The notes beneath the pieces are model-generated. The model searched no databases. It was not told the origin of the DNA and saw only the letters and a list, made by a program, of their open reading frames with translations. From an uncultured archaeon (lineage in GTDB: Archaea; Aenigmatarchaeota; Aenigmatarchaeia; QMZS01), in the NCBI GenBank assembly GCA_964547015.1, contig CAZJKT010000003.1:1154-65153 (forward strand): a stretch of DNA of 64,000 nucleotides, read 5' to 3'. Positions 17,144 to 17,665 of the stretch are shown piece by piece. The position numbers and the translations under genes are program-made. How positions within the stretch are numbered: the stretch's first letter is position 1; every line of letters begins with the position of its first letter.

Positions 17144-17665
17144 ATGAGGCCTGAAATTGATTTGATTCCGATGGACGATGTTGACGAATCGGTTATTGAA
17201 GCCCTCAGATTAAGCCTAAAGGATAAAAATTGCATAGTCCGGGTTTATGCAAAAATCCACAGCCCAAAAACCGCAATAAATATGTATAGGAAGCAATATG
17301 ATGCGGAAATCATTCTTGATGCGCTCAAAGACCTTGACGGAAGCATTATCGCAATAACCGACAAGGATATATATACTGAAAAGCTGAATTTTGTATTTTC
17401 CAGAGTCCGAAAAAAGGGCCCTGCAATAATCTCAACCTACCGCCTAAACCCGGAATTCTATCAGGAGCGCAAAAATTTTGACAAACTCGTCGCCCGCCTT
17501 TTCAAAGAGGCAATTTACTGCATAGGGAAAGTTTCAGGCTTAAATGATTGCCCTCACCCGAAGTGCATTATGCACAAATCAACTTCCGCAAGGGAAATCG
17601 ACATGAAGGACGCAGAATTCTGCAAAGAGTGCAAATTAAACAATATTATTGATTGTTTGGCATAA
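17144..17665 (+). CDS. Archaemetzincin-like protein (peptidase M54 fold) with a degenerate zinc site
   Basis: The C-terminal pattern C-x4-C-x-M ... C-x2-C (CPHPKCIMH...CKECK) matches the archaemetzincin motif HEXXHXXGX3CX4CXMX17CXXC. In place of HEXXH it has KEAIY. Confidence 0.5.
   Translation: MRPEIDLIPMDDVDESVIEALRLSLKDKNCIVRVYAKIHSPKTAINMYRKQYDAEIILDALKDLDGSIIAITDKDIYTEKLNFVFSRVRKKGPAIISTYRLNPEFYQERKNFDKLVARLFKEAIYCIGKVSGLNDCPHPKCIMHKSTSAREIDMKDAEFCKECKLNNIIDCLA

Follow-up and report, generated by a model that had tools for sequence, protein, structure and literature searches.

A catalytically degenerate archaemetzincin-like protein encoded directly upstream of the tRNA-splicing endonuclease gene in Aenigmarchaeota

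The DNA analysed here is a stretch of 64,000 nt from an uncultured archaeon (contig CAZJKT010000003.1), referred to as the window throughout. It carries on its forward strand an open reading frame (ORF, 17144-17665) for a protein of 173 residues related to the archaemetzincins (AmzA, peptidase family M54), which is followed by the tRNA-splicing endonuclease gene endA (17672-18505) and preceded by an intron-rich tRNA-Leu gene (16622-17058). The ORF begins with its sole possible ATG. Its product matches Pfam family PF07998 (Peptidase_M54) with an E-value of 4.3e-20 and 73 bits (gathering cut-off 24.4), and a phmmer search of the PDB retrieves the solved archaemetzincins 3zvs/4axq (Archaeoglobus fulgidus), 2x7m (Methanopyrus kandleri) and 3lmc at E-values of about 3e-15. 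An AlphaFold2 model computed from a 17-sequence alignment (predicted local distance difference test, pLDDT, 91.6; predicted template modelling score, pTM, 0.87) is matched by Foldseek to the A. fulgidus structure 3zvs_A with an E-value of 1.7e-16, template modelling (TM) scores of 0.82/0.90 and a root-mean-square deviation (rmsd) of 1.8 Å; the protein is thus predicted to adopt the metzincin/M54 fold, and the relation to archaemetzincins proposed in an earlier note, made from the letters of the sequence, is borne out by profile, homologue and model. The same protein reaches 135.8 bits against the NCBIfam model NF033823 (archmetzin), and because this lies just under the stricter cut-off of 145, its relatives are labelled 'hypothetical protein' at NCBI; JGI labels the window protein 'archaemetzincin'. 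A single M54 gene is present in the 64-kb window, where no second copy was found.

Loss of the catalytic site and its fixation in one clade

The earlier note had located the position of the HEXXH motif at KEAIYCIG and considered both zinc-liganding histidines to be substituted. Profile alignments and alignments with structural homologues agree on this placement, and residue alignments with solved archaemetzincins set KEAIYCIGKVSGLNDC of the window protein opposite KEAVHEIGHVLGLKHC. The loss is larger than had been described: in the segment YCIGKVSGLND (codons 125-135, 17516-17548), aligned to A. fulgidus AmzA, to 3lmc and within a set of 85 M54 proteins, all four catalytic residues of HExxHxxGxxH have been substituted (H125Y, E126C, H129K and H135D), the third zinc ligand, now D135, having been absent from the earlier account. 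In the 85-protein alignment these four residues are 98-100% conserved amongst 66 canonical M54 proteins and are found in none of the nine members of the degenerate clade that it includes. Since every catalytic residue is gone, peptidase activity of the window protein is predicted to be absent.

The substitutions extend beyond the zinc ligands. Three cleft residues that are otherwise invariant in the family are changed in the window protein (G86S, G107Q and F145K), of which G86 belongs to the FVFG edge strand and F145 to the FSNS segment past the Met-turn, as judged by column comparison with the 66 canonical sequences. By the same comparison, H125, E126, H129, H135, G86, G107 and F145 are lost in the clade and 88-100% conserved elsewhere, more than 30 other family-conserved positions are kept, and the residues R33, Y35, Y48, D59, P93, Q107, K164 and N167 have been gained as clade-specific invariants. 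Because catalytic and cleft positions were lost together, with so many others retained and new invariants acquired, the active-site cleft has been remodelled as a whole, on a scaffold that is still under selection. The second metal site of the family is intact. The cysteines and the Met-turn methionine (C136-x4-C141-I-M143-x16-C160-x2-C163, 17549-17632) are invariant in 17 of 17 homologues, in the layout that the earlier note had read from CPHPKCIMH and CKEC; in AmzA the metal at this Cys4 site has a structural role (PMC3427221).

A word-indexed homologue search returned 17 proteins, the nine closest of which (53-100% identity; the named ones all from Aenigmarchaeota) are degenerate and read [YF]-[CL]-x-G-[KRI]-x-x-G-x-x-[DE]-C, and the eight more distant of which carry the canonical HExxHxxGxxHC. 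A scan of species-representative genomes, for which 12 sequences were used, together with six-frame hidden Markov model (HMM) searches, added the degenerate members L011, L012, L013, L014 and L015; L016, with the motif YYMGQVKGLREC, forms a deeper branch. The degenerate set comprises the proteins P0001-P0009 and the loci L001-L005, L011-L016, L091, L097, L098 and L100. A neighbour-joining (NJ) tree built from 85 M54 proteins recovers the archaeal degenerate sequences as one monophyletic clade (bootstrap 94-96 of 100) that is nested amongst canonical Aenigmarchaeota AmzA, with weak deeper nodes.

Selection was estimated on the closer pairs within the clade, synonymous divergence (dS) being saturated for most pairs that involve the window sequence. 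The ratio of non-synonymous to synonymous substitution rates (dN/dS) is 0.078 for L013/L015 (dS 0.17), 0.081 for L002/L014 (dS 0.03) and 0.137 for L013/L002 (dS 1.0), which points to strong purifying selection on the degenerate form (dN/dS 0.08-0.14), and 46 columns are invariant amongst clade members that are 53-80% identical. Fixation of the degenerate form in a monophyletic Aenigmarchaeota clade, in conjunction with this strong purifying selection, indicates that the protein itself is needed. At least 24 public contigs encode a protein identical to that of the window, so that assembly or sequencing error does not account for the ORF; a pseudogene or sequencing error was considered and is ruled out by these identical contigs together with the conservation across the clade. 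With the catalytic residues lost, the Cys4 site kept and purifying selection acting, the proposal of a pseudo-protease that retains its structural zinc site stands, and we regard the window protein as very probably a functional pseudo-peptidase.

The top 80 matches of the genome scan for six species genomes that bear the degenerate form contain no second M54 protein, a result that is weak and suggestive only, given the incompleteness of metagenome-assembled genomes and the pattern-based nature of the scan. When isoelectric point and net charge were compared, the shift proved small: the isoelectric point is about 8-9 in degenerate members against a median of 7 in canonical ones, and we do not use it as evidence for nucleic-acid binding.

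A conserved gene pair with endA

The stop codon of the M54-like ORF ends at 17665 and the endA ATG stands at 17672 on the same strand, so that the 6 nt noted earlier lie between them (AGGATA, 17666-17671, purine-rich and Shine-Dalgarno-like). The 277-residue product of endA (17672-18505) is an alpha-type splicing endonuclease, recognised by the domains tRNA_int_endo_N (PF02778, E 1.9e-13) and tRNA_int_endo (PF01974, E 6.7e-26), by its match to the Methanocaldococcus jannaschii enzyme (PDB 1a79, E 1e-23) and by profile alignment.

In every degenerate locus (L001-L005, L011-L016, L091-L094 and the metagenomic L097, L098 and L100) endA follows directly downstream, and the genes that flank the pair on both sides vary between lineages. 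The spacer in relatives is frequently -4 nt, as an ATGA overlap, and otherwise -1 nt or between +2 and +42 nt. Adjacency or a 4-nt overlap that is conserved across diverged genomes supports co-transcription of the two genes, as the earlier note had suggested from the window. The pair is not confined to the degenerate clade: endA also adjoins canonical amzA in the Aenigmarchaeota loci L006/P0010, L007/P0012, L018, L030 and L032, and wider gaps occur at the canonical loci L034 (about 100 nt) and L063 (about 460-500 nt). Since canonical members share it, the pairing is older than the degeneration of the catalytic site, and what the window encodes is the orthologue of an AmzA of the active type, not an extra paralogue. 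Of 54 informative metagenomic EndA relatives, 26 are preceded by an M54 gene on the same strand, and in 17 of these cases the two genes lie within 100 nt of each other. The linkage is absent in the Bathyarchaeia, Thermococci, Archaeoglobi, Micrarchaeota and bacteria that were sampled.

The endonuclease itself has several features of its own. No variation is seen at its catalytic Tyr (RVY) or His (EHT) amongst the EndA relatives that were aligned. The column of the catalytic Lys (K156 of M. jannaschii, motif V-R-K) holds Ala in 11 of 11 Aenigmarchaeota EndAs, and Ala, Thr or Ser in all 80 of the metagenomic relatives; in the EndA of the window it lies within R253-A254-K255 (18428-18436), in which the residue after the column, K255, is variable in relatives. 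Residues 1 to about 95 (17672-17960) form a Lys/Glu-rich low-complexity N-terminal extension. Extensions of 35-100 residues occur in most loci with degenerate AmzA, and they are absent in L005 and in the EndAs linked to canonical AmzA (182-198 residues). Just ahead of the catalytic His, the segment GVKLKRGPKNVKEH (18302-18340) contains a Lys-rich insert of six residues relative to M. jannaschii EndA, which aligns with the insert of the Nanoarchaeum equitans alpha subunit; the literature connects inserts of this kind with broad intron specificity, and also with the disrupted tRNA genes of DPANN archaea (PMC5829648).

At a distance of 1-4 kb downstream of amzA-endA, a gene for a tRNA pseudouridine synthase of the TruB_N/Pus10_C type, followed by sec61-beta, is recurrent. 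It lies at about 19.8-20.6 kb in the window (as 5660-6430 in L094), at 8242-9012 in L001, at 10577-11341 in L002 and at 7983-8747 in L003, and these genes may form a loose tRNA-maturation neighbourhood.

Intron-rich tRNA genes around the pair

Neither ARAGORN (default and -i) nor Rfam (at the gathering threshold, and at E<=10 on 16100-17200) reported a tRNA in the 64-kb window. The tRNA gene that the earlier note had placed upstream of the ORF is nevertheless real: it is a class II tRNA-Leu(UAG) gene with four introns predicted to be of the bulge-helix-bulge type, and it runs from 16622 to 17058 on the forward strand. It was recognised by exon blocks common with L001 and by manual splicing. 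Three blocks upstream of the ORF are conserved with the L001 orthologue (5141-5477) and the lengths between them differ. The five exons occupy 16622-16643, 16757-16774, 16822-16832, 16930-16950 and 17046-17058, with junctions accurate to within 1-3 nt in either direction, and are interrupted by a D-loop intron of 113 nt (16644-16756), an anticodon-loop intron at 37/38 of 47 nt (16775-16821), an intron of 97 nt in the loop of the variable arm (16833-16929) and a T-loop intron of 95 nt (16951-17045). Spliced in silico, the gene gives a perfect cloverleaf that ARAGORN scores at about 115 as tRNA-Leu(tag) with a class II variable arm, and its T stem covaries with that of L001 (GGGAG/CTCCC against GTGAG/CTCAC). 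The 3' ends of introns pair by eye with the preceding exon (TCTGG/CCAGA; CTTAG/CTGAG, then an AAA bulge; TTGTGG/CCACAA), in agreement with the unconstrained minimum free energy (MFE) fold of the 437-nt precursor, in which the acceptor and T stems are also paired. The 85 nt between the tRNA 3' end and the M54-like ORF (17059-17143) contain a run of five T (ATTTTTG, about 17073-17079) and TATA-like boxes rich in A/T (about 17101-17137), probably a terminator for the tRNA and a promoter of the operon's own.

Two further tRNA genes of this kind were hidden in the window. On the reverse strand, a tRNA-Leu(CAA) gene with three introns (21237-20828; exons 21237-21216, 21051-21033, 20967-20937 and 20841-20828) reaches an ARAGORN score of 120.9 after in-silico splicing, and has a counterpart in L001 at 10794-10440 on the reverse strand. 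On the forward strand, a tRNA-Arg(UCG) gene with two introns (9828-10090; exons 9828-9866, 9960-9982 and 10078-10090) scores 124.8 once spliced. Sequence modules are common to introns of different tRNA genes and positions (16644-17045, 9867-10077 and 20842-21215), namely an A/T-rich hairpin (CTTTCTTT-loop-AAAGAAAG), the element GTCCGACACCCCAAAGAAAA, and a hairpin with a UUCG tetraloop (TTCCGCTTCGCGGAA / TTCGTCGCTTCGCGAC), which suggests one proliferating intron family behind them. Because its tRNA genes carry two to four non-canonical introns, the lineage would depend heavily on EndA cutting at non-canonical positions, and EndA function would be critical in such genomes.

Genes for tRNAs that contain as many as three introns are known. 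In open-access texts we found neither a report of archaeal tRNA genes with four introns nor a paper on intron-rich tRNAs in Aenigmarchaeota. That genes with two to four introns are missed by standard tRNA finders matters for estimates of the tRNA complement and of genome completeness in DPANN archaea. A tRNA gene is often found just upstream of canonical Aenigmarchaeota amzA as well (L032, 3879-3967; L029, 3811-3884; L046, 3850-3925), and also at L007 (892-989, reverse strand); the ARAGORN calls 'tRNA-Pyl(cta)' at L032 and a 98-nt 'tRNA-Leu(taa)' at L007 look like miscalled intron-containing tRNAs.

A proposed binding role, its rivals and the wider family

The explanation that we favour, with a confidence somewhat above even, is that the ORF encodes a dead orthologue of AmzA, a pseudo-peptidase with a binding role for which EndA or pre-tRNA processing would be the likeliest partner or pathway. 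In structural terms, a salt bridge between K129 and D135, together with Y125, would fill the vacated zinc site, and each protein would hold a single zinc ion, at the Cys4 site. We infer that the protein would act via binding instead of hydrolysis. It could associate with the co-translated EndA or with pre-tRNA substrate complexes, by analogy to CarG of Myxococcus xanthus, which is translationally coupled to carD, works solely in a stoichiometric complex with CarD and binds two zinc ions without protease activity (PMC8156234; PMC3427221). That EndA itself is the partner is a tentative suggestion, and on our reading of the comparisons a somewhat unlikely one. The more specific proposal that Aenigmarchaeota EndA has the AmzA-like protein as a non-catalytic subunit, or as a specificity or assembly factor, and that the pairing, canonical members included, serves pre-tRNA intron processing, is doubtful to a slightly greater degree. 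If it were true, the physiological context of archaeal archaemetzincins would be the processing of pre-tRNA introns, in lineages with up to four non-canonical introns per gene, and the clade that has entirely lost the protease site would demonstrate that proteolysis is dispensable for this role.

Several observations weigh against a role tied to EndA. A conserved gene order might by itself mean no more than that two unrelated housekeeping genes are co-expressed, and this is the substance of the strongest alternative, in which a non-catalytic pseudo-peptidase continues to bind some other peptide or protein target of the ancestral AmzA and has no relation to EndA or tRNA splicing. The linkage is not universal, since roughly one in two EndA relatives lacks an upstream M54 gene. 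The nearest degenerate outgroup, P0019, has rpoK as its neighbour and no adjacent endA, the canonical Aenigmarchaeota loci L029 and L046 have no endA nearby, and P0044, a degenerate protein outside the clade, was checked for endA linkage and has none. AmzA furthermore occurs widely across archaea, bacteria and eukaryotes with no such linkage, and no Rosetta-stone fusion of M54 and EndA was found amongst the 150 best representatives. Against this alternative, the pair persists, often with the 4-nt overlap, at AmzA identities of 35-40% at which other neighbours have been reshuffled, and the characterised non-proteolytic member of the superfamily works in a complex with the protein that its own translationally coupled neighbour encodes. 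We rank this reading as credible and clearly short of even. A separate reservation about the vacated site is that D135, C126 or H144 may retain some residual metal binding.

A further alternative is a remodelled enzyme, in which Cys126 would serve as a nucleophile with K129 and D135, or Y125, D135, C126 and H144 would constitute a new metal site. The substitutes are indeed fairly conserved (Y/F at 125, K/R at 129 and D/E/N at 135), and an independent bacterial clade has converged on Y...R, which would fit a retained function of these residues. No candidate catalytic residue is invariant, however: position 126 is S, L or Y and position 129 is I or Q in some clade members, the cleft residues G86, G107 and F145 are lost as well, and Lys or Arg in the place of a lost ligand would repel metal. 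The variation of the candidate residues makes new catalysis improbable, just as the low dN/dS makes it highly improbable that the ORF is a relic kept open for coupled translation of endA, with a functionless product. The overlapping or nearly abutting stop and start codons are what such a relic would predict, but coupling would place no constraint on the residues over the full length of the protein, at odds with the purifying selection, with the invariant columns of the clade and with the confident fold prediction.

A binding role of a dead AmzA orthologue can be set against the known members of the family. The window protein resembles AmzA (MEROPS M54) in size and fold, with 32% identity, and shares the Met-turn, the Cys4 motif and the residues R49, Q51, D75, R100, F105, Y106, R118, K121, E122, D153 and K155; it differs in having lost H-E-H-H and three further invariant cleft residues. 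For M. kandleri AmzA, proteolysis was not detectable in vitro (PMC3427221). The canonical Aenigmarchaeota AmzA proteins (P0010 and P0012; L006, L007, L030 and L032) are 35-43% identical to it and likewise encoded directly upstream of endA, whereas they keep HExxHxxGxxH and FSNS and are paired with EndAs that mostly lack the long Lys/Glu-rich extension. CarG, the only characterised non-proteolytic member of the superfamily, likewise retains the Cys4 site and has no protease role, as is predicted for the window protein, and its gene is translationally coupled to that of an obligatory partner, to which the tight, conserved coupling with endA would correspond; it differs in being bacterial, in having only an E-to-Q replacement, in binding two zinc ions via a His/Cys motif and in having a transcription factor as partner. 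Because the window protein reaches 57.9 bits against the CarG-type model NF033824, whose equivalog cut-off is 250, it is not a member of the CarG family by profile score, and its loss is an independent one. In vertebrate AMZ1 the third zinc ligand is likewise replaced (by N, S or T, as cited in PMC3427221), but AMZ1 keeps HExxH and is reported to be an aminopeptidase, whereas all ligands are gone from the window protein.

What is new here is an archaeal archaemetzincin orthologue that is fully devoid of the zinc site at its catalytic centre and locked to endA, pseudo-enzymes of the CarG type being already known. A translationally coupled amzA-endA unit at the level of the phylum, together with a conserved sub-clade free of catalytic residues, constitutes a testable lead and suggests a binding role tied to tRNA splicing. 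In the open-access texts no paper linking archaemetzincins with the splicing endonuclease was found, and the amzA-endA link offers a direct experimental handle on the role of archaeal archaemetzincins, by way of a mechanism that we only infer.

Degenerate M54 proteins also occur in bacteria. Members from Eremiobacterota/Vulcanimicrobiota (L053, L059, L062, L073, L076, L081 and L082) share the Y-A-x-x-R...S pattern, read YALGRAMGLRSC at the position of HExxHxxGxxHC and keep Cys4 and the Met-turn. They differ in grouping apart, with a bootstrap of 100, as the sister clade of canonical Eremiobacterota M54, and in lacking an adjacent endA; no consistent suggestive partner was found beside them, the neighbours being NAD(P)HX repair and MCP genes. 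The replacement of His by Tyr and of His by Arg/Lys is thus convergent, having arisen independently in the archaeal and bacterial clades. Pseudo-enzymes of M54 emerge repeatedly, and the Y...K/R pattern was reached on two or more separate occasions. The full HExxHxxGxxH/D motif is missing in 35 of 166 M54 proteins (17 homologues and 150 best representatives, P0010 being common to both), a count in which nine belong to the query clade and a few are G-position variants or fragments, and for which the profile favours degenerate forms. Changes in the other representatives include E to Q, as in CarG, E to V/T/S/I, and Y/F at the first His, and pseudo-archaemetzincins seem to be common and largely undescribed. 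Annotation pipelines label such proteins 'hypothetical' or, wrongly, 'Zn-dependent protease'.

Partly or fully degenerate motifs are seen in P0019, P0023, P0034, P0044, P0031, P0028, P0032, P0079, P0150 and others, and the bacterial protein L084 reads RQLGH...N in the catalytic motif. In P0158 (321 residues) a canonical M54 domain is fused to a C-terminal GNAT acetyltransferase domain; a predicted association of an archaemetzincin with an N-acetyltransferase is mentioned in the AMZ-tk paper.

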